From contig CAMWFQ010000017.1 in NCBI GenBank assembly GCA_947173495.1, positions 19,018-83,017 of the forward strand: DNA of 64,000 nucleotides, in the 5' to 3' direction. The position numbers were made by a program, and so were the translations under genes. This stretch comes from an uncultured Lachnospiraceae bacterium (GTDB lineage Bacteria > Bacillota > Clostridia > Lachnospirales > Lachnospiraceae). Position 1 is the first letter of the stretch. Every line of letters begins with the position of its first letter. This document shows, in pieces, positions 27,355 through 40,310 of this stretch. The notes below the pieces were generated by a model. That model saw nothing but the letters and a program-made list of their open reading frames with translations, ran no database searches and was not told where the DNA came from.

Positions 27355-29199
27355 TTATTTTTCCTCACATATCGGGAATCCGCTGATATCATAAATTACA
27401 ATGTTATATCCCGTACTCCCGCCCGCCAATAACTTCTCTGCCAGCTGAATATTGGAGTAAATCAGCTTAAGATCTATCCAACTGTGCTCTCTTTCTGAAA
27501 CCAATACTCCTGCTCCGCCAAACACATCCGGCACAATGCTTTCAAACGTCTTGACAACCGGACAATGTTCCTCTAATGTCAGATGCGCCTGAGAATCCCC
27601 CAACTTTGTATTGACGATCACAAAATCTGCTTCCCGTGTTTTATATATCTGATCTCTCTTTACCAGTACATCTGTCAGGTCATCTGGCTGAATTGTTCCC
27701 TTTTTGCTGATCCACCCTCCGGGAACAAACCCGGTATAATACTCTGACAGGCTGTTGTCCGGCGTGATTCCATTGGCATCGCAAAAATCTTCCTGGATCA
27801 GCCTTGTGTCCTGTCCGCTTCTTACCGCAACAATTACTTCTATCAAGCTGCCGGTACCCAGGTCCAAGGCTAAGATCAAAGTCATTAATACCCCCAGCAC
27901 CTTTACCCACAAGTACCTGCAGCGAACACAGAGCCAGACCCCCATACCTGCCAGTAACAAAAGATCCAGATAGAATTCCAGTCCCCATCTGAAAAACCCC
28001 CTGTTCATGAAACAGAGCACCAACAGCTTCAGAACTCCCAACAGGAAAATAATATATTGTCTGCAAAAATTTCTGACAAAATAAGCGCCTCCTATTATCA
28101 GCAAAATGATGAAGATCATTCCGGCAATATGAAGGAAACTCTGATCTACATACTGCTTTAACTGTAAAAAATACGGAGGTCTCTCTCCTCCATCATATAC
28201 GGCAATATTAATAAACCCGTCCACAATAGCGGTCTTAAAGTGCTGTACCATATTGGGTGCAAAAATCCCCAGATTTATCACATAGCACAGCAGGGCGAAC
28301 AGGCCTTTTCTGATCACCTCACTGATATGTTTACTGTTCAGAAGAATCACCAGCGCAATATATGCACATCCGATTGCACCATGCCATTTCTCCAGTGTTG
28401 CCAGCGCCGATGCCATGGACATAAAATAAATAAAGCACTTCCTCTTCTCTTCCATGTAGCGCAGGCTGAACAACAGCAAAAGAGTTAAAAAGAAAAATGC
28501 CGTTATATCCCCCGTGACCTGCTTGGCCATCAATATATATGTGGGATACAGCGCAGAAAGCAGGCATGCAATCACCCCCAAATGCTTCTTCAGATAATTT
28601 CCAATGAGAAACACCAGAAGAACTGATCCGAGGCCAAAGGCGGCAACGACATATCTGTTAATAAAATAAGCCTGTATCATTTCATATGTGACAGGCGTCG
28701 CTGTCAGCCTGCTGTAGACATAAGTAATGACAGCAGCAATCTTGGAAGTAAACTGATTGGGATAATAGAAAGAGGAAGAATACAGGTGACGTCCCTGTGC
28801 CATTTCAATTGCAGATCCTACCAGCTTACACTCATCAGGCTGGAAAATACTTGTCCCGCCCCAATTGCATCCGGCAAATCTCAGAACCCCGCCTGCAGCT
28901 AATATAACCATTAATAAGATGATGTCTAATCTGTTAATATGATATCTTGCATGGAATCTATGAATATACGCTCCAAGTGAATAGTCATCCGCCCATTTCC
29001 TGATGTCAGTCAGGCGGAATATCAGACAGGATATCAGCCTTGCTGCCAACATTGTTGTTCCAAAGTATAAAAGCCTCCCTTTCATTCCCTTCTCAAAACA
29101 AAAACGCCCTATGTCTGTAGAACCAAAGAAGTAGGCGAGAATCAAAAAAAGTGTTATGTCTGCCATTATAAAAACTGTTTTTTGCTTATATGACTTCAC
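27355..29199 (-). CDS. GT39/ArnT-like glycosyltransferase
   Basis: WGGTSIFQPDE motif, multi-TM; GTG start with RBS. Confidence 0.75.
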   Translation of the reverse strand: MKSYKQKTVFIMADITLFLILAYFFGSTDIGRFCFEKGMKGRLLYFGTTMLAARLISCLIFRLTDIRKWADDYSLGAYIHRFHARYHINRLDIILLMVILAAGGVLRFAGCNWGGTSIFQPDECKLVGSAIEMAQGRHLYSSSFYYPNQFTSKIAAVITYVYSRLTATPVTYEMIQAYFINRYVVAAFGLGSVLLVFLIGNYLKKHLGVIACLLSALYPTYILMAKQVTGDITAFFFLTLLLLFSLRYMEEKRKCFIYFMSMASALATLEKWHGAIGCAYIALVILLNSKHISEVIRKGLFALLCYVINLGIFAPNMVQHFKTAIVDGFINIAVYDGGERPPYFLQLKQYVDQSFLHIAGMIFIILLIIGGAYFVRNFCRQYIIFLLGVLKLLVLCFMNRGFFRWGLEFYLDLLLLAGMGVWLCVRCRYLWVKVLGVLMTLILALDLGTGSLIEVIVAVRSGQDTRLIQEDFCDANGITPDNSLSEYYTGFVPGGWISKKGTIQPDDLTDVLVKRDQIYKTREADFVIVNTKLGDSQAHLTLEEHCPVVKTFESIVPDVFGGAGVLVSEREHSWIDLKLIYSNIQLAEKLLAGGSTGYNIVIYDISGFPICEEK

Positions 29200-29401
29200 A
29201 GCTTTGTAATTCCTTCCCTCACGAAAAAGGCAGCCTTAATTGACTACCTTCTCTTTTCCTGCTTATTTAGATCTTCCCTGTAAAACCAGCCAATGTTATA
29301 TTCTGAATAATCTCTACAATAATATAAATAAAGATAGCATATACCTCTAAAAATGTAAAGAATATTTTTCCATATCCAGCGCACCCAAGTCCAAAAAAAT
29401 A

Positions 29402-29430
29402 TTGACAAAGCTTACCCTTGTGTATATCAT
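29402..29430 (+). promoter_or_regulatory. SigA-type promoter upstream of MBOAT
   Basis: TTGACA-17 nt-TATCAT, 47 nt before ATG 29478. Confidence 0.65.
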
Positions 29431-29477
29431 TATTTTGGCTATATAGTTTCTAATAAAGTTCTGTAGAGGACAAATAA

Positions 29478-30974
29478 ATGCTTTTCAACTCATTACAATT
29501 TTTATGTTTTTTTCCTATAGTGGTATTCATTTATTTTCTTATTCCCCATAAACTTAAAAATTACTGGCTGCTCCTGGCAAGTTATTATTTTTATATGTGT
29601 TGGAACGCTAAATATGTTGTACTGATTTTGTTTACAACAATCATTACATATGTAAGCGGTCTGTTGTTAGAACGGGTAAATCAGAGAGTTCATTCGGAGA
29701 GAAGGAAAGGATTGCTCAAACAATCTATTGTTTCCTTAAGTCTTCTGACAAACCTTTCACTCCTTCTATACTTTAAATACTTCAACTTCATAATAAATAT
29801 CCTTGCCAACCTGCTAAGCCGCATCCATATTCAGCTTCATTTTCAGGAATTTGACATCCTTTTGCCTGTAGGCATTTCATTTTATACATTTCAGGCCCTT
29901 TCTTATACAATGGATGTGTATCGGAAAGAAATTCCCGCGGAAAAGAATTTTTTCCAATATGCACTGTTTGTCTCCTTTTTCCCACAACTAGTCGCCGGCC
30001 CTATCGAGCGATCCAAAAACTTGTTATGTCAGTTAACTCTGCCAAAAAAATTTGATTATAAAAAGGCCAAAGAGGGGCTTTGGCTGATGTTATGGGGGTT
30101 CTTTCTTAAGCTTGTACTGGCTGACAGAATTGCATTATTCGTTGATACAGTCTATGGCAATTATACTGACTATGCCGGAGGGTATCTGATTACTGCAACC
30201 ATTCTTTTTGCTGTTCAGATTTACTGCGATTTTTATGGCTATTCCATTATTGCCATTGCAGCAGCCAAAATTCTCGGAATTGATTTAATGGAAAATTTTG
30301 ATGCGCCATACCTTTCCACTTCCGTAGCCGGCTTCTGGCGTAAATGGCATATATCCCTTACCTCATGGTTCAAAGACTATTTGTATATTCCATTGGGCGG
30401 CAGCAGAAAAGGCCGACTTCGTAAATATTTTAACAAATTATTTGTTTTCCTGCTTAGCGGTCTATGGCATGGCGCTTCATTTTCCTTTGTTATGTGGGGA
30501 GGTCTGAACGGTTTTTATCAGATTATTGGGGAAATATTGCAGCCTGTAAGAAATACGGCAACTGCCATCCTTCATCTGAACAGAAATTCTTTAGCTCACA
30601 AAATTATACATGTTATCGGAACATTTCTTCTGGTAGACTTTGCATGGATTTTCTTCCGTGCAAGCAGTTTTAAAGTATCTCTTGAAATAATTAAAAACAT
30701 GTTCAGCGTTCACAATCCATGGATATTTTTTGATGGTTCTATTTATAATTGCGGCCTGGACAGTAAAAATTTTGGTCTTCTACTGATCTGCTTATGTATC
30801 CTTTTGTTTGCAGATTACTGTAAACATAAAAATATTAAAATCCATGAAATCATTGTCCAACAGGATTACTGGTTCCAATTATTGTTTATGACTTTCTCTA
30901 TTTTCTTTATTCTCACATTTGGAATATGGGGACCGGGATATGACGAAACAAATTTTATTTATTTTCAATTTTAA
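29478..30974 (+). CDS. MBOAT family O-acyltransferase
   Basis: LPVGISFYTFQAL, FFPQLVAGPIER, DFYGY, FWRKWH, SGLWHGA, FIYFQF end. Confidence 0.92.
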   Translation: MLFNSLQFLCFFPIVVFIYFLIPHKLKNYWLLLASYYFYMCWNAKYVVLILFTTIITYVSGLLLERVNQRVHSERRKGLLKQSIVSLSLLTNLSLLLYFKYFNFIINILANLLSRIHIQLHFQEFDILLPVGISFYTFQALSYTMDVYRKEIPAEKNFFQYALFVSFFPQLVAGPIERSKNLLCQLTLPKKFDYKKAKEGLWLMLWGFFLKLVLADRIALFVDTVYGNYTDYAGGYLITATILFAVQIYCDFYGYSIIAIAAAKILGIDLMENFDAPYLSTSVAGFWRKWHISLTSWFKDYLYIPLGGSRKGRLRKYFNKLFVFLLSGLWHGASFSFVMWGGLNGFYQIIGEILQPVRNTATAILHLNRNSLAHKIIHVIGTFLLVDFAWIFFRASSFKVSLEIIKNMFSVHNPWIFFDGSIYNCGLDSKNFGLLLICLCILLFADYCKHKNIKIHEIIVQQDYWFQLLFMTFSIFFILTFGIWGPGYDETNFIYFQF

Positions 30975-30985
30975 AGAGGGATCAA

Positions 30986-31996
30986 ATGACTAGAAAACAG
31001 ACTCTAAATGCCATCATCAGTTTTGTTCTTATAATCAGTATATTGGTTTGTTTGATTTTTTATACTGGCCACCTATTCCGCCCTTTGGATCCTGACAGCT
31101 CAATTGGGGCAATTAATGCTTTCCATTCTATGCCCGAGAATTCCCTTGAGGTGATCGTATATGGTTCAAGCCATGCCTGGGTCGGTTTGAATGTTATGAA
31201 AATGTATGAAAAATACGGAATTGGTATTTATAATTATGGATGTAACCGTCAACGTCTTAACACGACAGCATTATTCTTTCATGACTCTTTGAGGTCACAA
31301 TCTCCAAAGTTAATACTGATTGAGACGTACATGGTAAATAATCTGGCATTTGATATTGATATTTGTGATGAAATTTATTACACCCGGGCCATTCGTCCTT
31401 TTGACGCCAAAAAAAGATATCTAAAGCAATGCTTTGGCGATAATCTGGAAAGATATTTATCTTATTATGTTCCCTTTACAGCCTTTCACAGCAACTGGAA
31501 CAATCTGCAAAAAGCAAGCTTTGAAGAAACGACAGATCAGTTTCAGATCAACTTCTGCCAGACAATGGGATATCTCCCCATAGAAACTGTTGTTCCAATC
31601 GAAATTGCAGATTACAGGACCTATGAGCAGCGCGATATCTCCGATGAATCAAAGGAAATTCTTGATGACATTGTACAAGTGTGTAATGAGAAAAATATCC
31701 AGATACTATTTTATACCGCGCCCTACCAGGGCAGACATCACTATTTTAACGCTATGGCAGATTATGCAGCAGAAAACGGTTGTCAATATATTAACCTCTT
31801 TGAAAAAATGGATGAAATCGGAATCGATGACCAAACAGATTTCTATAATGAAGGGCACCTGAATACCAGCGGTGCTCTCAAAACAGCTGATTATCTTGGG
31901 CAGTATATTATTGATCACTATGAACTTACGGATATGAGGCAAATAGAGGGAAATATATGGGAACAAAATCTCAGGATTCTGGCTGAAGAAGACTGA
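30986..31996 (+). CDS. SGNH/DltD-like partner of MBOAT
   Basis: N-terminal TM, VYGSSHA, FYNEGHLN. Confidence 0.7.
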   Translation: MTRKQTLNAIISFVLIISILVCLIFYTGHLFRPLDPDSSIGAINAFHSMPENSLEVIVYGSSHAWVGLNVMKMYEKYGIGIYNYGCNRQRLNTTALFFHDSLRSQSPKLILIETYMVNNLAFDIDICDEIYYTRAIRPFDAKKRYLKQCFGDNLERYLSYYVPFTAFHSNWNNLQKASFEETTDQFQINFCQTMGYLPIETVVPIEIADYRTYEQRDISDESKEILDDIVQVCNEKNIQILFYTAPYQGRHHYFNAMADYAAENGCQYINLFEKMDEIGIDDQTDFYNEGHLNTSGALKTADYLGQYIIDHYELTDMRQIEGNIWEQNLRILAEED

Positions 31997-32055
31997 TCAA
32001 GCCTTAATGAATATACCTATAAAATTAGTCATTCCTTTTAATTCAGTAGAAAGTA

Positions 32056-32084
32056 TTGTCAAAACAGCCAAAATATATTACACT
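32056..32084 (+). promoter_or_regulatory. Putative SigA promoter of the ImmA/IrrE gene
   Basis: TTGTCA-17 nt-TACACT. Confidence 0.4.
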
Positions 32085-32162
32085 AAATATAGATTTACCT
32101 CTTCTCAAAAATACTATATATAGATTCTATATTGTTTTGGAATGAATCTGGAGGAACATAAG

Positions 32163-32609
32163 ATGTCGCCATTATTATCTCAAAAGAGAAGATTGGCAAT
32201 TCAAAAAAAGGTTGATGAACTTACTAAGAAATACAAAAACGCAACTCCTTTCGAGATTGCCGCTTTTCTTGGTATAGTCTGTAAATTTAAGAATTTACCG
32301 GAAGGCATAAATGCCTATTCCATATATGAAAAATCCATTATATACATCAGCGATCGATTTAAAGAGAACAGCTATTCTGCCAAAATAGTTTGTGCTCACG
32401 AATTAGGACATTTGCTTCTTCAGGCTCATTCCGGTACTTTTGAATATAATTTTACCCTATACCGGAATTCTGCTACGAAGGACGGGATGCTGGAGTATGA
32501 AGCCAATATTTTTGCGGCGCTGCTTATGCCGCAGATCACTCAGGGGAGAGATCCTTTCAGTTATCATCCCGAAAAACTATACCGATGTCTGAATGATAAA
32601 ATTTTTTAA
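32163..32609 (+). CDS. ImmA/IrrE (M78/DUF955) zinc metallopeptidase
   Basis: CAHELGH (HExxH) and EYEANIFAALLMP; RBS GGAGG before ATG 32163. Confidence 0.88.
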   Translation: MSPLLSQKRRLAIQKKVDELTKKYKNATPFEIAAFLGIVCKFKNLPEGINAYSIYEKSIIYISDRFKENSYSAKIVCAHELGHLLLQAHSGTFEYNFTLYRNSATKDGMLEYEANIFAALLMPQITQGRDPFSYHPEKLYRCLNDKIF

Positions 32610-32625
32610 ACGGTATGAGAGAGCA

Positions 32626-35511
32626 TTACATCAATGCTCCCTCATACAGCATTTTCCTCACAGCACGGATTATTTTTTCTACTTCTTCTATAATCCGCCC
32701 CGCGTCTTTTTCCTTTTGAATGAAGCTTGCATTCATTCCGTTCTGGCGTATCTTATCTATCCACTCCAAAGTCTCTTCTTTCGCCATTCCCTTCGCCTCC
32801 GCCTCATAGTAAATATATGCCAGTTCATTTTCAACATTGGTATTGAACACAGCCGGGTCATCAGAATTAATCGTGAGCATGACATGGTAATCTGCCTTTT
32901 CATTTTGCTTCCCCAAGTAAAAGACCGGATGCTCCTTCATATTGCTGAATTCCCCGATGGTTATATTAGAGGTAGGATTTGCTTCTATGTAAATCCCTTT
33001 TCTTTGGATTTTGTGAATTAAATACTCCTGCAGATGCCGGTACAGAGCTATTTCATCTTTTGTGACAGCCACAAGTTTTATCTCTCTGTATCTTTCTTCA
33101 AAAACAGGACAGTAATGGGTTAACAGCAAAGTTTCTTCTGTCCATATGTTTTGACAATCTTTTCCGGCGTTATCCCAGCAACTGCATCTATACTCTTCAT
33201 CAGCTTTCCTCTGCGCAATCTCTCTGTGTGAGAGATCAAACTTCATCTTATATGTCTGATACAGCATCTGGATCGTTATTGTTTCCCAGCAGGGATACAG
33301 TTCATGTACGATGCCGATGATTCTGTCTTCTAATACGCCTGTTTTTACCGGCAGGTCCACATCGCCATGAATACATATTCCCCAAATCCACAGCAGATTT
33401 TCCATATGTTCCAGTACCGGAACAGCCACCACTTCATTATCTGCTGCCCATTGCTCTGCGCTGACCCCGAGCGCAAGCGCATGCCCCAGACGATCTCCTG
33501 CTTTATACCGGAATTCCTCCAGGACTTCGTCAATATGGCGCAGTCCGGAGACAATATGACGGAAGTCTTCCCCTACATGATAGGTAAATCCAATATTCTG
33601 TACTCTGCTGAATGATGTCCTTCCGTTGGTTACTTTTACAACCGGTCTGGTCACCTCCTGTGAACGTATCAGCTTATAAGCAGGTGCAAACATCCACGGC
33701 TCCATCACATTTTCATCGGAAGCGGCGTCTATCCCTACAATATATTCATCAATTCCGGGAATTGTCTGGCGTATTTCTTCTAATGCCACAGCCATATTCT
33801 GTATAAAGTACCGCCTGTGCATACGGCCTGAGACCCGTCTCTCACCGGAGAGTATTTCTTTCTTCCAGCAGTAGTCTCCCGATACATCCTCCAGGAACTC
33901 TCCCTTGATGAAATGAAAGACGATACCCAAAACAGGAATATTGGCGGATGAATTTCTTAATTCTTCCTGAATACTCTTTCGTTCTTCTGTTGAAATCCCC
34001 TTAAGCTTCTCCCTGTGTAACAGATTACGGGTTCTTCTGACTCCAATTGTATCCTCCATGATAAACCGTTTATAGGACTCAAATACCTTACAAATCTGCC
34101 CATATAACTGATATAAAATATACTTCCTACATTTATTATATTCAAAGAAACTCCATCCCACTTCGTCAATGTCAGGAGCAATTCTTATCTCCAGTTTTTT
34201 TAAGTATTCCATTCTTGCCTGGGAACGGAAGAGCTCCACCAACAGATCATTTCCTCCCAGAGCTGTTTTTTCCGCCCTTTTTGCCGCATTATATTGGGTC
34301 TGAAAATATTTTAATCCCTGCAAGGTATATTTTTCATGAATTTTGTAATAATATTCATTTTTCAGTCGAAGATACTGCAAAAACAGCCTGGCGAAGAAAG
34401 GATCGTCCATACAGCATTTCACATACTGATAGCTTTGGAACAACAGGATAAATTCTGAAGAGGTCTTATATTCCAGATATTCCTCATATACTGCACCGAG
34501 CAGATAATCCCTCTCCTCAGTCAAACCTTCCTTCAGTTTCCTGTATATTTTGTCAATCTTGTGAATACACCCTCTTTCTACCTCTCCTTCATATTCTCCG
34601 CAGTAGAGCCGCAGCATAATATCTCTTATTTCTCCCGGCACAACACGATCCAGCCATCTTCTGAACCCCGCTTTCTGCTCTTTTCCTTCAAAGTACAGTG
34701 CTGACAAACATCGAAACAAGGACATTTCAAGTCTGGTCAGATTATCTCTGCTCCAGTTCTTTTCTTCCATTTTGCTTATAAAACTCAGATCCGTATAGTA
34801 TAGCCATCCGGTTTCATAATCAAGCCCTACATTAAAATGCAGATGATTTTCCGCCACACCCCTTTGCATTACTTTTATAAGCAGTTTATCCATCAGCGCC
34901 AGATTGGGTCCCTGCTCATAAAGCGCCTCCATTCCCAGGTCATTTTCTACTGCAGCAGCAACAATATAGATATCCGGCACTGTGAAACGGCAAAGTAAAT
35001 TCCAGGTTTCCAATTTATCAAATACAGCGTCTCCATTCAGAATTTCTTCTACCTTATTTTTGCTTTTGCCCTTCCATTGCTTAATGGAGGCGACGCCGTC
35101 GCGGTATGTAATGAGAGCCTGAGAAACCCCGGATATAATCTTCAAAATGTAATAACTGCTGATGATTTCCAAATTAGAATGATTGATTCTGTTTTTACGC
35201 GTATATTCCATATACTTTTCCACCTCAGGCAGGGGGAAGAACAGGTTCCAAAGCATCTCGACTTCGTCTTCTGTTTTGATTCTCCAGTGATTTCGTTCTG
35301 TCAGATACGCGTTTAAAACTCTTTTTGCCCTTCTGAACTCTGCATTTTTGCGTCCCGCTTCTGAAGCCGATACTGACCTGTCATCACTCTTTATAAATCT
35401 ATGATATGCTCTATAACAGGAAAGAAAATAATCTGATTTTCCCTGTTCCGAATCAATTAATGGAAACAGGAGAACTTCCAATATCTGATTCAGTCTGTAT
35501 TTATTCATCAT
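32626..35511 (-). CDS. rdrB: Large adenosine deaminase-fold protein, RADAR RdrB-like
   Basis: About 960 aa; ENHLH (HxH), GIDAASDE, YHVGED, RLGHAL, EANPTSN, NSDDP; start overlaps the ATPase stop. Confidence 0.8.
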   Translation of the reverse strand: MMNKYRLNQILEVLLFPLIDSEQGKSDYFLSCYRAYHRFIKSDDRSVSASEAGRKNAEFRRAKRVLNAYLTERNHWRIKTEDEVEMLWNLFFPLPEVEKYMEYTRKNRINHSNLEIISSYYILKIISGVSQALITYRDGVASIKQWKGKSKNKVEEILNGDAVFDKLETWNLLCRFTVPDIYIVAAAVENDLGMEALYEQGPNLALMDKLLIKVMQRGVAENHLHFNVGLDYETGWLYYTDLSFISKMEEKNWSRDNLTRLEMSLFRCLSALYFEGKEQKAGFRRWLDRVVPGEIRDIMLRLYCGEYEGEVERGCIHKIDKIYRKLKEGLTEERDYLLGAVYEEYLEYKTSSEFILLFQSYQYVKCCMDDPFFARLFLQYLRLKNEYYYKIHEKYTLQGLKYFQTQYNAAKRAEKTALGGNDLLVELFRSQARMEYLKKLEIRIAPDIDEVGWSFFEYNKCRKYILYQLYGQICKVFESYKRFIMEDTIGVRRTRNLLHREKLKGISTEERKSIQEELRNSSANIPVLGIVFHFIKGEFLEDVSGDYCWKKEILSGERRVSGRMHRRYFIQNMAVALEEIRQTIPGIDEYIVGIDAASDENVMEPWMFAPAYKLIRSQEVTRPVVKVTNGRTSFSRVQNIGFTYHVGEDFRHIVSGLRHIDEVLEEFRYKAGDRLGHALALGVSAEQWAADNEVVAVPVLEHMENLLWIWGICIHGDVDLPVKTGVLEDRIIGIVHELYPCWETITIQMLYQTYKMKFDLSHREIAQRKADEEYRCSCWDNAGKDCQNIWTEETLLLTHYCPVFEERYREIKLVAVTKDEIALYRHLQEYLIHKIQRKGIYIEANPTSNITIGEFSNMKEHPVFYLGKQNEKADYHVMLTINSDDPAVFNTNVENELAYIYYEAEAKGMAKEETLEWIDKIRQNGMNASFIQKEKDAGRIIEEVEKIIRAVRKMLYEGALM

Positions 35512-38500
35512 CCTCTCCCTCAATTAACGAATTAATATAATTGATTCTCTCCATTTCGTAAGAGGATTTTATATCATCCTGAAGCATTGCCAGCTCATTA
35601 TCGGTGCCGGATAGCTTCTTTTCTTCCAAAATATCAACTGCAAGGTTAAAAAACTGATAATAATATGTCACTGTTTTCTTTCCGTTTATTTTTACTTTCT
35701 CCAGATCTTTCGATGATATGCTATTACCATTTTTATACCTGTCGCTTATAACCTGAAAAATATAAACCTTTTGCAGAAGTGTAATAAATCTAACCTGCAT
35801 TCCCAGTTTTACTGCTTTTCTTACTTCGTCACTATTTTGCAGATCAATCAGGATATCCATCGCGCCAATTACTTCTTCCACTCTGTTCTTCAACGTTACA
35901 TCTCTGTATACAGCACTATCTGCAGTCCCTCTTTGTCTGTAGATATTATTAAGATTTCTTACCAGCTCCATATACAGCCCTTTACTGATCGGTATCTCTC
36001 TCGTTGCTCCGGTAGATCTTAAATTACTGACCTGTATACGCAGTCTGTTAATCTGGGCATAATTCAATGGATAGTCGTCTGCTATTTCGTTTAGTACTTC
36101 TATTACATATTGAGGATCTCTAAGCAATGCATGATTTCCAAATGAATAAGCAGCCTGTTTTACTTTATTGATATATTCTCTGAGCAGCCCCGCTGTCTCT
36201 TCATAATTTTCATACATTCTTTCCTGTACATCCCTGATTATTTCACCAGGGCAGATTCCAAAAAATTCTTTCAATTTACCGAAATCCTGCAAATAGACCT
36301 GTGTTCTCTTGGCAACGATGTCTATGATCTGGCCCAGACCCAGATACCGCCCGGACGCAGTCCCCTGATTTCCATTGACCTTTGCTTTTTTACTGACGTT
36401 TGATTCATTTTTCCTGTCAAACGCTATTACAATTTCATTAAAAAAATTATAAAATTTATCGTCCGCCCCTCTTACATTTTTGCCGTCTATATCAATCCCT
36501 TTTTGATGATCCTCTTTTAATTTATCCCATTTATCCTGCATTTTCACCTCTGAAAAGCAGTCGCTTAGGTTATTTTTAATCTCATTGTCTATCCTTCTCT
36601 GATACTGTGTCAGGTATTCTCCAAACGGATAAACAATGCAGTCTTCCATATTCTGCCTGTTAAACAAATATACATTTCCATATACCAGAAACAATCTGCC
36701 CGCTATTTCACTAAACCATTTTGGATTCTTCCTGTAAATTGTAAGTAAATCGCTCCGAACCGGCGCTTTCCCATATGAATACTCCTTAAAATTATAAAAA
36801 TATTCCATATTGAACTGCGCATCGGAAGCCTTATCCGTAATAATCGTTCCCAGCCGATCCAGCAGATTGGAATAATGTCTGAAATACTCGTCAGCATGCA
36901 AATCATCTCTAAACACATAACGGTTTCCAAACGCTTCATCTCCAATATATTTTGTTAATGGCAATACCACATGAATCTTTTCCCTTCCCGTAACTCCCCT
37001 GTCAATCCCCTTTTCCATTATCAATAAAAGATTTTCCAGAAAAGCCATCAGGGAATAAAGCTGAAGCCCCGTCTCGATTTTCTTGTGCTTTCCCTTTTCC
37101 TTTTCATGCCCCCGGTTCTTTTTCAGAAATTCATTCAGGAATTCATAATGAAGATATAATTTCCATTGATTATATTCCAGTAAAAAAATATTATCCACAA
37201 ACTCATCAATATCTTCTATTGCCTGCGACAGATCATGATTGGCGCTAATGGTAATCCGTAAAAAATATCTGCAATGATAGTATATTTTCATCACCGGATC
37301 CTTCTTATCTGCAGTTGCTATTGCCTTCTTTAAACTATAAACCAATTCCTGCAGAGCAATGTAAACATTTCCGATCTGTCTGGAGGTATTTCCCATGAAT
37401 TTTAAATAGAAATTAATCAGTTCGGAATTCTCACCCATAAAATTATGCGGTTTCTCCCCAACCACACAGTCTATTAAGCTCTGCACCTCCTCTTTGACAC
37501 CACAGCCTAAATTTTTATTATCCTCCAGACAGAATGTCTCCTTCTGTCTGGCCGTATTAAACAGTCTCAGGTAATAACGTGTGGAGGTTGGAAGAACCTT
37601 CCCCAAATACATTCTGGCAGTACGGCTTACTACATCCTCCGCGCTCTTGTCCGGCTCATTATCTTCCTCCTCGTTTTCCCGTGGTATTCCCCAGATATAG
37701 CGGGGTTTATTATTTTTAACCAGATAATTTCTCCATTCACTTGGCAGTCTGCCGATATTTCTGTCAAGTGCATTTTCGATCACCTCCAGAAAGAGCTCTT
37801 CATCTGCTGTTGTAATCACAATGATATTGGGGTGAGATAAATACTTGATAATCACTGACAAAATCTCTTCTATTTTTTCCGGCGCCAGATCAACATCGTC
37901 AAATATAAAATAAATCATCGGACATATGGACTTCTTTTTTCCTTCCCGCAGTTCCTGATATCTCAGTATATTTTTTATCCATTCATCCCACAAATCTGCA
38001 ATTTCCTTTGCAAATTTGTAATAGTCTTCCGCCTGCAGAACGGAATTGTTAATCACTGTATAATAAGAAGATTCCACGCCGGGATTATAATTTCCTGCAT
38101 AAAAAAACTGCGTCATTCTTTCCAGCTTCCCATGCAATGACTCTTTCATATTTTCATCGGGCAGATACTTGCATTTGTTCCAGTATCCTTCCTCCCTGTC
38201 TTTTTGTTCTAACCTATGTATATGTTCCTCCAGGTTCCCTATTTCCTCCCTGATAATAGCCAGAATCCAGCCCAGAACCGTACAGTTCTCCGGTATCACT
38301 TCCGGAATAATCAACGGAAGAACCACATCATATTCATCCTTTTCATACATCTCCCTTATCTTTCTCTGTAATGAAAATGCCACCGACGTCTTTCCGGTTC
38401 CTCTGGGCCCTAAAATAGAAAAGACATTATCATACATAAAATTGTCCTGATAATATCTCTTCCTGCTTGACTTCATATTTTCCTGAAGCTCCTTATAGGC

Positions 38501-38617
38501 AACTTCCCGGCACACATTGATCTTGTGAAACAAATTTTCATACGTAGGCAATACATTTTCCAACTGAATGTCTGTTAACAGTCTGATTCCAACCTTGTGA
38601 TCATTTTTTCTTCCCAT
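35501..38617 (-). CDS. rdrA: Large P-loop ATPase, RADAR RdrA-like
   Basis: About 1040 aa; Walker A GPRGTGKT, Walker B FIFDDVD, KVLP motif; directly upstream of the deaminase (ORF-track start 38647). Confidence 0.78.
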   Translation of the reverse strand: MGRKNDHKVGIRLLTDIQLENVLPTYENLFHKINVCREVAYKELQENMKSSRKRYYQDNFMYDNVFSILGPRGTGKTSVAFSLQRKIREMYEKDEYDVVLPLIIPEVIPENCTVLGWILAIIREEIGNLEEHIHRLEQKDREEGYWNKCKYLPDENMKESLHGKLERMTQFFYAGNYNPGVESSYYTVINNSVLQAEDYYKFAKEIADLWDEWIKNILRYQELREGKKKSICPMIYFIFDDVDLAPEKIEEILSVIIKYLSHPNIIVITTADEELFLEVIENALDRNIGRLPSEWRNYLVKNNKPRYIWGIPRENEEEDNEPDKSAEDVVSRTARMYLGKVLPTSTRYYLRLFNTARQKETFCLEDNKNLGCGVKEEVQSLIDCVVGEKPHNFMGENSELINFYLKFMGNTSRQIGNVYIALQELVYSLKKAIATADKKDPVMKIYYHCRYFLRITISANHDLSQAIEDIDEFVDNIFLLEYNQWKLYLHYEFLNEFLKKNRGHEKEKGKHKKIETGLQLYSLMAFLENLLLIMEKGIDRGVTGREKIHVVLPLTKYIGDEAFGNRYVFRDDLHADEYFRHYSNLLDRLGTIITDKASDAQFNMEYFYNFKEYSYGKAPVRSDLLTIYRKNPKWFSEIAGRLFLVYGNVYLFNRQNMEDCIVYPFGEYLTQYQRRIDNEIKNNLSDCFSEVKMQDKWDKLKEDHQKGIDIDGKNVRGADDKFYNFFNEIVIAFDRKNESNVSKKAKVNGNQGTASGRYLGLGQIIDIVAKRTQVYLQDFGKLKEFFGICPGEIIRDVQERMYENYEETAGLLREYINKVKQAAYSFGNHALLRDPQYVIEVLNEIADDYPLNYAQINRLRIQVSNLRSTGATREIPISKGLYMELVRNLNNIYRQRGTADSAVYRDVTLKNRVEEVIGAMDILIDLQNSDEVRKAVKLGMQVRFITLLQKVYIFQVISDRYKNGNSISSKDLEKVKINGKKTVTYYYQFFNLAVDILEEKKLSGTDNELAMLQDDIKSSYEMERINYINSLIEGEDDE

Positions 38618-38653
38618 TTTTCTTCCGTACCCCTTTCCCCATAACACTATAGC

Positions 38654-38902
38654 CTATCTCTTATTCCCACGTCCCCGCCTTACCTGTATCGGCGGCGTTC
38701 CATATAAAAGCCACTCCCTTTCCTCCGACATAAATTTTGAATTCCGGCGCTCATACGCTTCCTTTTGACGCTTCAATTTCTCCCGGCGCTGATTTAATTC
38801 ATACTTGGTCGGAGCAGGCGCAAAATCCATCTCGATATAACGCCGCGTCTCCCTAGCGCTCAAATCTATATACTTTTCCTGCCTGCGGTTACTTTTATAC
38901 AT
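38654..38902 (-). CDS. Small basic hypothetical protein upstream of rdrA
   Basis: 82 aa, RBS AGAGGA, co-oriented with and just upstream of rdrA. Confidence 0.6.
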   Translation of the reverse strand: MYKSNRRQEKYIDLSARETRRYIEMDFAPAPTKYELNQRREKLKRQKEAYERRNSKFMSEEREWLLYGTPPIQVRRGRGNKR

Positions 38903-39171
38903 AATCCTCTGCTATTTAACCTTCTCTTTCTTTATAATATGCATTTCCGCCTTCCTGAATACTGCTTTTACGGCATAATCCTATACAATAGCCCTCATCT
39001 CTTACTACTAATAACTGCTTTTATCAATATTCTCCTATTGTCAAAGGAGATCTTTAAATGTATATTACCACATTTTTCCCAAAAATGGGCACTTAATTTA
39101 TAAATAGTAAAGCGAATACCTATGAAAAGCAGTAGTCCTTCTGTATCATTCAGCAAAATTGCTCCTACTGG

Positions 39172-39201
39172 TTCACAAAAACTGCAGATTTCTGGTATAA
39201 T
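39172..39201 (+). promoter_or_regulatory. Extended -10 promoter of the AT3 gene
   Basis: TTCACA-18 nt-TATAAT with TGn extension (TGGTATAAT). Confidence 0.5.
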
Positions 39202-39251
39202 AGGCAAATATAAATCAAAAGGAAGTTGGTGCCTTAAACGAAGCGAAAGGA

Positions 39252-40310
39252 ATGACAAAATTTATGAACACCTCAAATCATAGAATGATTGGATTAGATC
39301 TATTCAGAGTCATAGCAGCTTTTACCGTATTTCTTTTTCATTCTTCCATCCATATGGGATGTACTTATGGAATCTTTCAGGATTTTGTAAGCATGGGAGC
39401 CGTGTTTATGACCGGTTTCTTTCTTCTTTCTGGTTTTGTAATATTTAAAACCTACAGTAAAAGAGAAATAACTAAAATATCTGAGATAAAAAATTTCTAT
39501 TTAAAAAGATTAATCACATTAATTCCAGTTTATTATGTAACTGCACTTTTATACACCTTAACTTTAGATTCAAAAAACATCGTCGATAATCTTTTCTTGG
39601 CTCCCATTGAATTATTGGGGATTCAGTCGACTTTCAGTTCATTATTCAGTTATTCGCACAATGGCGGTACGTGGTTCATTTCCTGTTTGATAATTTGCTA
39701 TCTGATTTATCCCTATATTCAGGAACTTGTCCTCCAAATCTCACTGAAAGGCAGATTTATCATTTTCGTTCTATGCTGCTTCATTTTGCTGTATGCACCT
39801 GTGATTGTTATTATATTCAAGACGGCAAATATTTATTCAAATCCTTTCTATCGATGTCTTGAGTTTATAATCGGGATCCTGTCGGCTTCTATCATTGAAA
39901 ATACCTCCGACAGCCGTCAGTATCATTTGCTGCGGACATGGAAATTCTTTTGGATAGAATTGATACTCTTCATCGCCGGTATTTCTCTCGCAGTAAAATT
40001 AAATTTATTTGTTAATGATTATATGCTTTATAACTGGATTAATCTTCCGCTTTCTATTCTGATGATCTGTACGCTGTCAGGTGTATCATCAGAAAAGATG
40101 CAGAATTCCCGGATCATCTCTTATCTCGGATCAATATCTTATTGTTTCTTTTTAGCTCAATTTTTTACATGGAAATTGACGGCTTTTATCCTCAGGATAA
40201 TAAATCAGGACAGCAACTTATTCAAAATAATCACATCTCTAATTATTTGTACTATACTATCAATACTACTTTATGAACTGGTTGAAAAGCCATTTAAGAA
40301 ATTATTGTAA
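39252..40310 (+). CDS. Acyltransferase family 3 O-acyltransferase
   Basis: GLDLFR..AA..VFLFH, FFLLSGF, GTWFISCL, LGSISYCFFL, YELVEKP. Confidence 0.88.
   Translation: MTKFMNTSNHRMIGLDLFRVIAAFTVFLFHSSIHMGCTYGIFQDFVSMGAVFMTGFFLLSGFVIFKTYSKREITKISEIKNFYLKRLITLIPVYYVTALLYTLTLDSKNIVDNLFLAPIELLGIQSTFSSLFSYSHNGGTWFISCLIICYLIYPYIQELVLQISLKGRFIIFVLCCFILLYAPVIVIIFKTANIYSNPFYRCLEFIIGILSASIIENTSDSRQYHLLRTWKFFWIELILFIAGISLAVKLNLFVNDYMLYNWINLPLSILMICTLSGVSSEKMQNSRIISYLGSISYCFFLAQFFTWKLTAFILRIINQDSNLFKIITSLIICTILSILLYELVEKPFKKLL

Follow-up and report, generated by a model that had tools for sequence, protein, structure and literature searches.

A single-domain M78 peptidase gene convergent on rdrB in an uncultured Lachnospiraceae bacterium: probably a separately acquired neighbour of a RADAR locus

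Does a metallopeptidase gene that ends 16 bp from a RADAR defence operon belong to the system, or did it arrive there on its own? The question is raised by 64,000 nucleotides of DNA from an uncultured Lachnospiraceae bacterium (contig CAMWFQ010000017.1 of assembly GCA_947173495.1, positions 19,018 to 83,017), hereafter called the window. In it a gene for an M78 (ImmA/IrrE-like) peptidase is convergent on the rdrB-like gene of an rdrA-rdrB pair. A first-pass annotation, made from the letters of the DNA, had proposed that the peptidase may be an accessory of RADAR. If it were a RADAR component, the locus would represent a new multi-gene subtype and would point to control of the system by proteolysis. 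Comparison with related loci speaks against this. With a probability of roughly two in three we favor the view that the peptidase gene was acquired separately, as a one-gene module or as the head gene that remains of a small mobile cassette, and that it resides in a defence islet within a glycan locus without being a component of RADAR. Three findings lead us to this reading: neither RADAR nor the membrane protein encoded beside the peptidase in sister strains is co-conserved with it, the peptidase gene runs towards rdrB with a hairpin in between, and its clade occurs in unrelated cassettes.

The hypothesis of the peptidase being a RADAR accessory was tested by a neighbourhood analysis. An alignment of 18 RdrB homologs served as the query and yielded 80 loci from species-representative genomes (±10 kb) and 80 metagenome loci (±5 kb). 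Peptidase homologs were sought in the six-frame open reading frames (ORFs) of these 160 loci with a hidden Markov model (HMM) of 121 M78 homologs and with tblastn (E 1e-5). The rdrB 3' end was complete and followed by at least 700 bp in 137 of the 160 loci; a recognisable homolog of the window RdrA was present in 75, and 69 had the RdrA homolog together with at least 700 bp downstream. A homolog of the window peptidase was found in 0 of the 160 loci, the closest RdrB relatives (47-53% identity) included. Absence beside close rdrAB homologs had been named in the first-pass annotation as an outcome that would speak against the accessory; the proposal of a peptidase accessory, and with it of a new multi-gene subtype, is thus not supported. 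In the closest RdrB relatives the downstream genes are of the sugar-nucleotide, glycosyltransferase, sulfatase or DUF2726 kind. A literature search retrieved no paper linking RADAR with a peptidase accessory.

The only match of the M78 HMM among the 160 loci was in L043 (Marinisporobacter). It is a protein of 290 amino acids (aa), i.e. of the size of CapP, with its own HTH_3 gene before it and two co-directional genes after it. This pair of M78 and helix-turn-helix (HTH) genes is the regulator pair of a neighbouring system; it heads the next operon and is not part of RADAR. The order in L043:4935-16417 is a Ham1-SIR2 fusion gene, RADAR, the HTH_3 and CapP-sized M78 genes, and then co-directional genes for 201 and 556 aa. 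L043 has the appearance of a defence island in which uncharacterised cargo is under a CapH/CapP-type switch.

Clustering of the flanking ORFs revealed a different conserved companion. Directly after rdrB or before rdrA, 16 loci (table) code for a membrane protein of 205-229 aa, which is a full-length match to the padloc Csx27 profile (5e-8). By this match and its position the conserved third gene of the Clostridia RdrB clade is Csx27, and the clade is largely RADAR of the rdrABC type (PMC7699616). The window RADAR locus is without Csx27.

The spacer between the convergent genes was inspected for signals of transcription termination. The peptidase gene, stop codon included, ends at 32609, and rdrB has its stop codon at 32626-28, so that the reported distance of 16 bp and the convergent orientation can be read directly from the sequence. 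No obvious terminator had been noticed there at first. Yet an inverted-repeat search revealed a hairpin that spans the spacer and the final rdrB codons, with 93% complementary arms at 32613-32627 and 32633-32647 and short T runs flanking both sides. Its folding energy is -18.9 kcal/mol on the forward and -24.2 kcal/mol on the reverse strand, its stability corresponds to a z of about -5.5, and 0 of 200 shuffles were equally stable. A simple terminator consensus scan requires five T in eight bases and skipped the hairpin on this T-run rule alone. The hairpin sequence is identical in the sister-strain contig L091. From its structure it is plausible as a bidirectional terminator.

The peptidase gene itself is intact. 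The longest open frame extends from 32142 to 32609 on the forward strand and has 155 aa from the ATG at 32142. Translation probably starts at the ATG at 32163 and yields 148 aa, because GGAGG is located 8 nt before this codon, the N-termini of homologs match, and gene callers choose the 148-aa form. The initial assignment to the M78 family from the HELGH and EYEAN motifs was corroborated by a match to Pfam Peptidase_M78 (PF06114; COG2856) with an E-value of 4e-8 and 33.5 bits against a curated cutoff of 22. All residues of the HExxH motif and of the E-x-x-A-N-x-F-A motif with the downstream glutamate ligand are present (H86, E87, H90, E118, A121, N122 and F124) and the motif residues are invariant in 48 homologs. 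The best padloc match was capP with 2.3e-11, followed by several RmrA profiles that match the peptidase domain with up to 7e-9. PHROG 87, 'metallo-protease', matched at 4.9e-12, and NCBIfam antitox_spr1629 at 1e-6, which is far under its cutoff. When a profile of the 48-homolog alignment was compared with solved structures, CapP (7T5T) was found at 1e-8 and IrrE (3DTE) at 1.3e-7. An AlphaFold2 (AF2) model had a predicted local distance difference test score (pLDDT) of 88.6 and a predicted template-modelling score (pTM) of 0.84; its top Foldseek matches were selecase (4QHF), IrrE (3DTE) and PprI (8SLN) with a probability of 0.99 and E-values of just 0.009-0.02. Taken together the gene encodes an intact single-domain zinc endopeptidase of the ImmA/IrrE type, with activity being predicted. 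It is the sole PF06114 match in its own 4.6-Mb genome.

M78 peptidases of the ImmA type are expected beside an HTH repressor gene, and the first-pass annotation had noted that none is adjacent here. Our searches agree: there is no HTH-like ORF in 31960-32180 or 38640-39260, no HTH Pfam domain in the neighbour genes, and no recombinase or integrase domain among the neighbours tested. In a collection of 5.8 billion proteins the peptidase formed one near-identical cluster, and the next relatives were 48% and 45% identical. They stand at the head of a conserved operon, where M78 is followed by genes for 209, 186 and 249 aa (L002-L009, e.g. L004:175-2687), and there is no RADAR in these loci. PHROGs, Pfam and padloc gave only sub-threshold matches for the three accompanying proteins (DUF4942 0.001, PDC-M21B 0.015). 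Read by eye, the 249-aa protein starts like a PIN-type domain. Relatives with 37-41% identity are the first gene of another cassette (table) that codes for an M78 protein of 166-174 aa, a second M78 protein of 196-218 aa and a 161-aa membrane protein. The cassette of L107 adjoins genes for a relaxase and a type IV secretion system coupling protein. The 700-880 bp upstream of these cassettes are ORF-free and contain no HTH-like ORF.

In a maximum-likelihood tree the window peptidase groups with 12 such relatives with a support of 95/96. In other clades the ImmA homolog is immediately preceded by a repressor-type (cI/Xre) gene. The ORF upstream of the ImmA homolog was judged Xre-like from its translation in L113-L120; in L299-L302 a cI-like gene, ImmA and an integrase gene follow each other, and Pfam HTH matches are present. 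In the clade of short M78 peptidases, however, no HTH neighbour was seen in any of the three types of context. Therefore, as far as gene neighbourhoods tell, the absence of an HTH gene is a trait of this small clade and not an accident of the window locus. One could go further and see in the peptidase and its 12 nearest relatives a hitherto undescribed group of short M78 peptidases without HTH partners, which occur in mobile elements and defence islands and whose substrate is something other than a neighbouring repressor. In this species one of them would have come to lie between rdrB and a RADAR-associated membrane protein, where it would serve the islet either as a post-translational switch or in guarding against phage proteins. 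We rate this as a long shot.

The peptidase has a narrow distribution. GenBank phages contained no match, plasmids only a Bacillus ImmA at 37%, and IMG/VR, searched with the clade profile, only generic prophage ImmA with at most 43% identity. Among 400 Lachnospiraceae genera, each represented by one genome, no ortholog was found; the closest match had 38% identity. Neither the window RdrB nor a homolog of the peptidase was found in 18 congeners. A search for an empty site in congeners gave G418 as the best flank match, at 66% identity and with a different gene order.

The variation of the locus among strains of the species was examined with same-species contigs, which are 98-99% identical over window positions 29000-40306 and have the same rdrAB-peptidase arrangement. 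Sister strains possess about 717 bp that are missing from the window at a sharp junction upstream of the peptidase (table). In the additional DNA lies a gene for a 201-aa protein (L091:11650-12255) that has four long, hydrophobic helices. The gene is divergent from the peptidase and on the strand of rdrAB, such that the two genes are back-to-back across a common 304-bp region and the order of the islet is 82-aa gene, rdrA, rdrB, peptidase (reversed) and membrane gene. The window strain has lost the 717-bp membrane-protein gene, and its peptidase is located 167 bp downstream of co-directional MBOAT and 336-aa genes. A second difference is found at 39224-39225, where sister strains are longer by 112 bp; the additional stretch lies between the region ahead of the 82-aa gene and an AT3 acyltransferase gene.

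The back-to-back position in sister strains would suit a module of the RosmerTA or exclusion type, in which the divergent 201-aa protein is regulated by the peptidase or regulates it; deletion of the partner would then have orphaned the peptidase in the window. A small membrane protein also accompanies members of this M78 clade in the related M78-M78-membrane cassettes, and the RmrA matches fit this picture. Yet the membrane protein of those cassettes is unrelated to the 201-aa protein (hhalign probability 0.1%), the two genes at this locus are divergent and do not form an operon, and the peptidase is without the HTH domain of RmrA. In addition, no M78 gene was found near the other examined contexts of the 201-aa family, i.e. 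phage moron positions, defence islands and RADAR loci. We consider such a module rather unlikely.

Close homologs of the 201-aa protein (60-72% identity) are solo genes on their own strand and were seen among structural genes of SPbeta-like phages, at the edges of integrated elements by polysaccharide loci, between a VapBC-like pair and AbiH, and beside a methylase/MutH pair. Distant members directly flank RADAR in three loci: in L067 and L180 the gene is just after rdrB, in L078 it is the first gene and overlaps rdrA. The 201-aa protein may thus be a third kind of RADAR-associated membrane protein. A homology with Csx27/RdrC found no support, as hhalign against the Csx27-like accessory of the clade gave a probability of 6% and there was no padloc match. 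Pfam yielded only weak matches of the 201-aa protein to 8xMP under the cutoff (0.004 and 0.0004), and an AF2 model (pLDDT 84) had no fold match in the PDB. The 209-aa gene beside the membrane protein in phage contig L099 is unrelated to the gene, likewise of 209 aa, that follows the closest M78 homolog.

Several of these data weigh against a mere passenger. First, the peptidase was beside rdrB in every same-species contig recovered (8 places of 16 RdrB-carrying contigs, and L010). Second, in sister strains it has rdrB on one side and on the other a membrane protein of the family seen next to RADAR in three other loci, an arrangement that could mean recruitment. Third, the available sequence upstream of the operon of its closest homologs is just 27-326 bp long, and an HTH gene could lie further off. 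Fourth, the intact frame and the low divergence of the peptidase argue against a decaying relic. Because peptidase and rdrB were never seen apart within the species, a lineage-specific role in RADAR keeps some weight. The peptidase might have been recruited in this species as a post-translational switch that upon infection cleaves, for example, RdrA, RdrB or the 82-aa leader protein, a logic like that of CapP without CapH. M78 peptidases do regulate other defence operons, as established for CapH/CapP (10.1101/2022.04.27.489752, PMC13228613), and capP was the best padloc match. On the other hand, none of the other RdrB loci carries the peptidase and a hairpin separates the convergent genes. Furthermore, the 148-155 aa leave no room for the second domain of CapP with its ~290 aa, an HTH partner is absent, and the 82-aa protein is kept in L011, where the peptidase is absent. 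Overall, we regard a regulator of RADAR as improbable.

How the peptidase gene would be expressed was assessed from its upstream region. The candidate promoter of the first-pass annotation, TTGTCA-17-TACACT at 32056-32084, agrees with the consensus at 9 of 12 positions. Yet such sites are no commoner in this AT-rich region than in shuffles (6 found, 5.5 expected), so that the match is no better than chance. Upstream regions of peptidase homologs were aligned in search of a conserved operator and had only AT-richness in common. The gene may be transcribed from its own weak promoter, and in the window strain, without the 717-bp membrane gene, read-through from the co-directional MBOAT/SGNH-like genes 167 bp upstream would be possible. 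Transcription would end at the shared hairpin, which would insulate the peptidase from rdrAB.

The weak promoter match raises the possibility of the peptidase being a functionless hitch-hiker, i.e. a fragment of a mobile cassette that was stranded recently, has ceased to be expressed or to be of use, and is so far free of disabling mutations. The lack of partner genes and of orthologs in related genomes is consistent with this, as is a locus in flux with indels of 717 and 112 bp between strains. Between strains the peptidase differs by 1-2 substitutions in 447 bp and is less diverged than its neighbours; this is too little change for a test of purifying selection. Yet the frame is full length compared with all homologs, the catalytic residues are intact, the ribosome-binding site is good, and a dedicated hairpin follows the stop codon. 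A functionless gene is therefore unlikely in our opinion. The first-pass annotation had also considered the relic of a separate element. A separate origin is indeed the better reading, since the nearest relatives head unrelated cassettes; the intact frame argues against decay.

For the separately acquired module that we prefer, a mode of action can be sketched by analogy. Like ImmA, IrrE and CapP, the peptidase would cleave a specific partner protein in a site-specific manner. Because there is no partner gene in cis, the substrate would be encoded in trans, e.g. as a repressor-like protein of a phage or another mobile element, or it would have been lost.

The coordinates of the features are compiled in the table. 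The neighbourhood of rdrAB allows some further observations. A gene for an 82-aa basic protein is located upstream of rdrA at window 38654-38902. A homolog occupies the same position in L011, the closest RdrB relative (L011:6709-6846; 50% over residues 23-68), and nowhere else. An unrelated 74-aa protein fills the position before rdrA in six loci (L027-29, L037, L040, L045). Small leader proteins ahead of rdrA may be a recurring feature. The rdrAB genes of the closest relatives also adjoin glycan genes, namely for mannose-1-phosphate guanylyltransferase and a GT4 glycosyltransferase (L011:13043-14410; L022:13489-14592), and the edge of polysaccharide loci hosts the 201-aa membrane gene family as well (L102-L105). 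These defence genes may repeatedly land in surface-glycan loci.

Table. Features of the peptidase-rdrAB region and related loci; plain positions refer to the window
Feature	Position	Strand	Evidence
Upstream non-coding region with weak sigma-70-like site (32056-32084), AT-rich dyads and no HTH-type ORF	31997..32162	+	
Junction where the window lacks ~717 bp present in sister strains	31998..32003		blastn vs L091, L092, L095: 98-99% identity either side, 721 bp vs 4 bp
Ribosome-binding site GGAGG, 8 nt before ATG 32163	32150..32154	+	direct sequence reading
Single-domain M78 (ImmA/IrrE-like) zinc metallopeptidase gene, 148 aa	32163..32609	+	Pfam PF06114, padloc capP, AF2/Foldseek
HELGH catalytic/zinc-binding motif (H86, E87, H90; 155-aa numbering)	32397..32411	+	sequence; invariant in 48 homologs
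EYEAN motif with third zinc ligand E118	32493..32507	+	sequence; E118, A121, N122, F124 invariant (48 homologs)
Hairpin, 15-nt arms, 5-nt loop, candidate bidirectional terminator	32613..32647	both	inverted-repeat search and folding
rdrB-like adenosine deaminase, convergent neighbour	32626..35523	-	NCBIfam RdrB 6.9e-59 (below equivalog cutoff), padloc RdrB 1.1e-39, Pfam A_deaminase
rdrA-like ATPase	35501..38647	-	weak RdrA matches; next to RdrB in 75 loci
Csx27-homolog loci	L012-L016, L018, L021, L023, L024, L030, L041, L042, L057, L132, L136, L150		
M78-M78-161-aa cassette loci	L107:5001-6743; L110:1629-3293; L112:1375-3036		

What do these results mean for RADAR? On this evidence the catalogue of the system, rdrAB with or without Csx27 or SLATT, needs no change. 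M78 peptidases are familiar enzymes, and to find one alone in a defence island is nothing unusual. New here are the clade of short M78 peptidases without HTH neighbours and the membrane family that flanks RADAR; both are minor observations and do not amount to a new system. Because the short ImmA-like clade is well supported and without repressor neighbours, its substrates may not be transcription factors. The four-helix membrane family is a solo gene of defence islands and a phage moron, yet it flanks RADAR in three unrelated loci and in the sister strains. The locus as a whole illustrates gain and loss of small modules at the strain level in a defence islet within a surface-glycan locus.

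Finally, we compared the peptidase with known systems. The RADAR accessories rdrC (Csx27) and rdrD (SLATT) are small membrane proteins that are co-oriented and co-conserved with rdrAB (PMC7699616). The window peptidase is located directly after rdrB, like Csx27 in related loci. Unlike these accessories, it is soluble, confined to one species and not co-conserved with rdrA-rdrB, and it is on the opposite strand with the hairpin between the stop codons. CapP (7T5T) is the best sequence match among solved structures as well as the best padloc match, and it too is an M78 peptidase beside a defence system. CapP has ~290 aa, a second domain that forms a groove for binding of single-stranded DNA, and a cysteine-switch loop (PMC13228613). 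The window peptidase, in contrast, corresponds to the peptidase domain alone, covering positions 20-115 of 242 of the capP profile and residues 79-155 of 291 of 7T5T. Moreover, there is no CapH in the window, and the peptidase is downstream of and convergent on the defence operon, whereas the CapP pair is upstream. RmrA of RosmerTA and the spr1629 family share the peptidase domain (7e-9 and 1e-6, respectively). Yet these proteins have ~380 aa with an N-terminal HTH and form an operon with a toxin, while the window peptidase matches positions ~168-255 of 380 of the RmrA profile only and has no co-directional partner. IrrE/PprI of Deinococcus (3DTE, 8SLN) agrees in the fold and the motifs of the peptidase domain; it carries additional HTH-like and GAF-like domains and has DdrO as a dedicated substrate, none of which is found at the window locus. 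Unlike ImmA of ICEBs1 and of prophages, the window peptidase has neither a repressor gene nor an integrase domain nearby, i.e. the adjacent, usually upstream and co-directional Xre/cI HTH repressor gene that defines an ImmR/ImmA pair is absent, and it belongs to a separate clade without HTH neighbours. On the other hand, it resembles ImmA in having a single M78 domain, the HExxH...E...ANxFA motifs and a length of 148-155 aa compared with 141-175 aa of ImmA-type homologs, and its sister clades consist of such pairs, in which a cI/Xre gene is followed by ImmA and then by an integrase gene.

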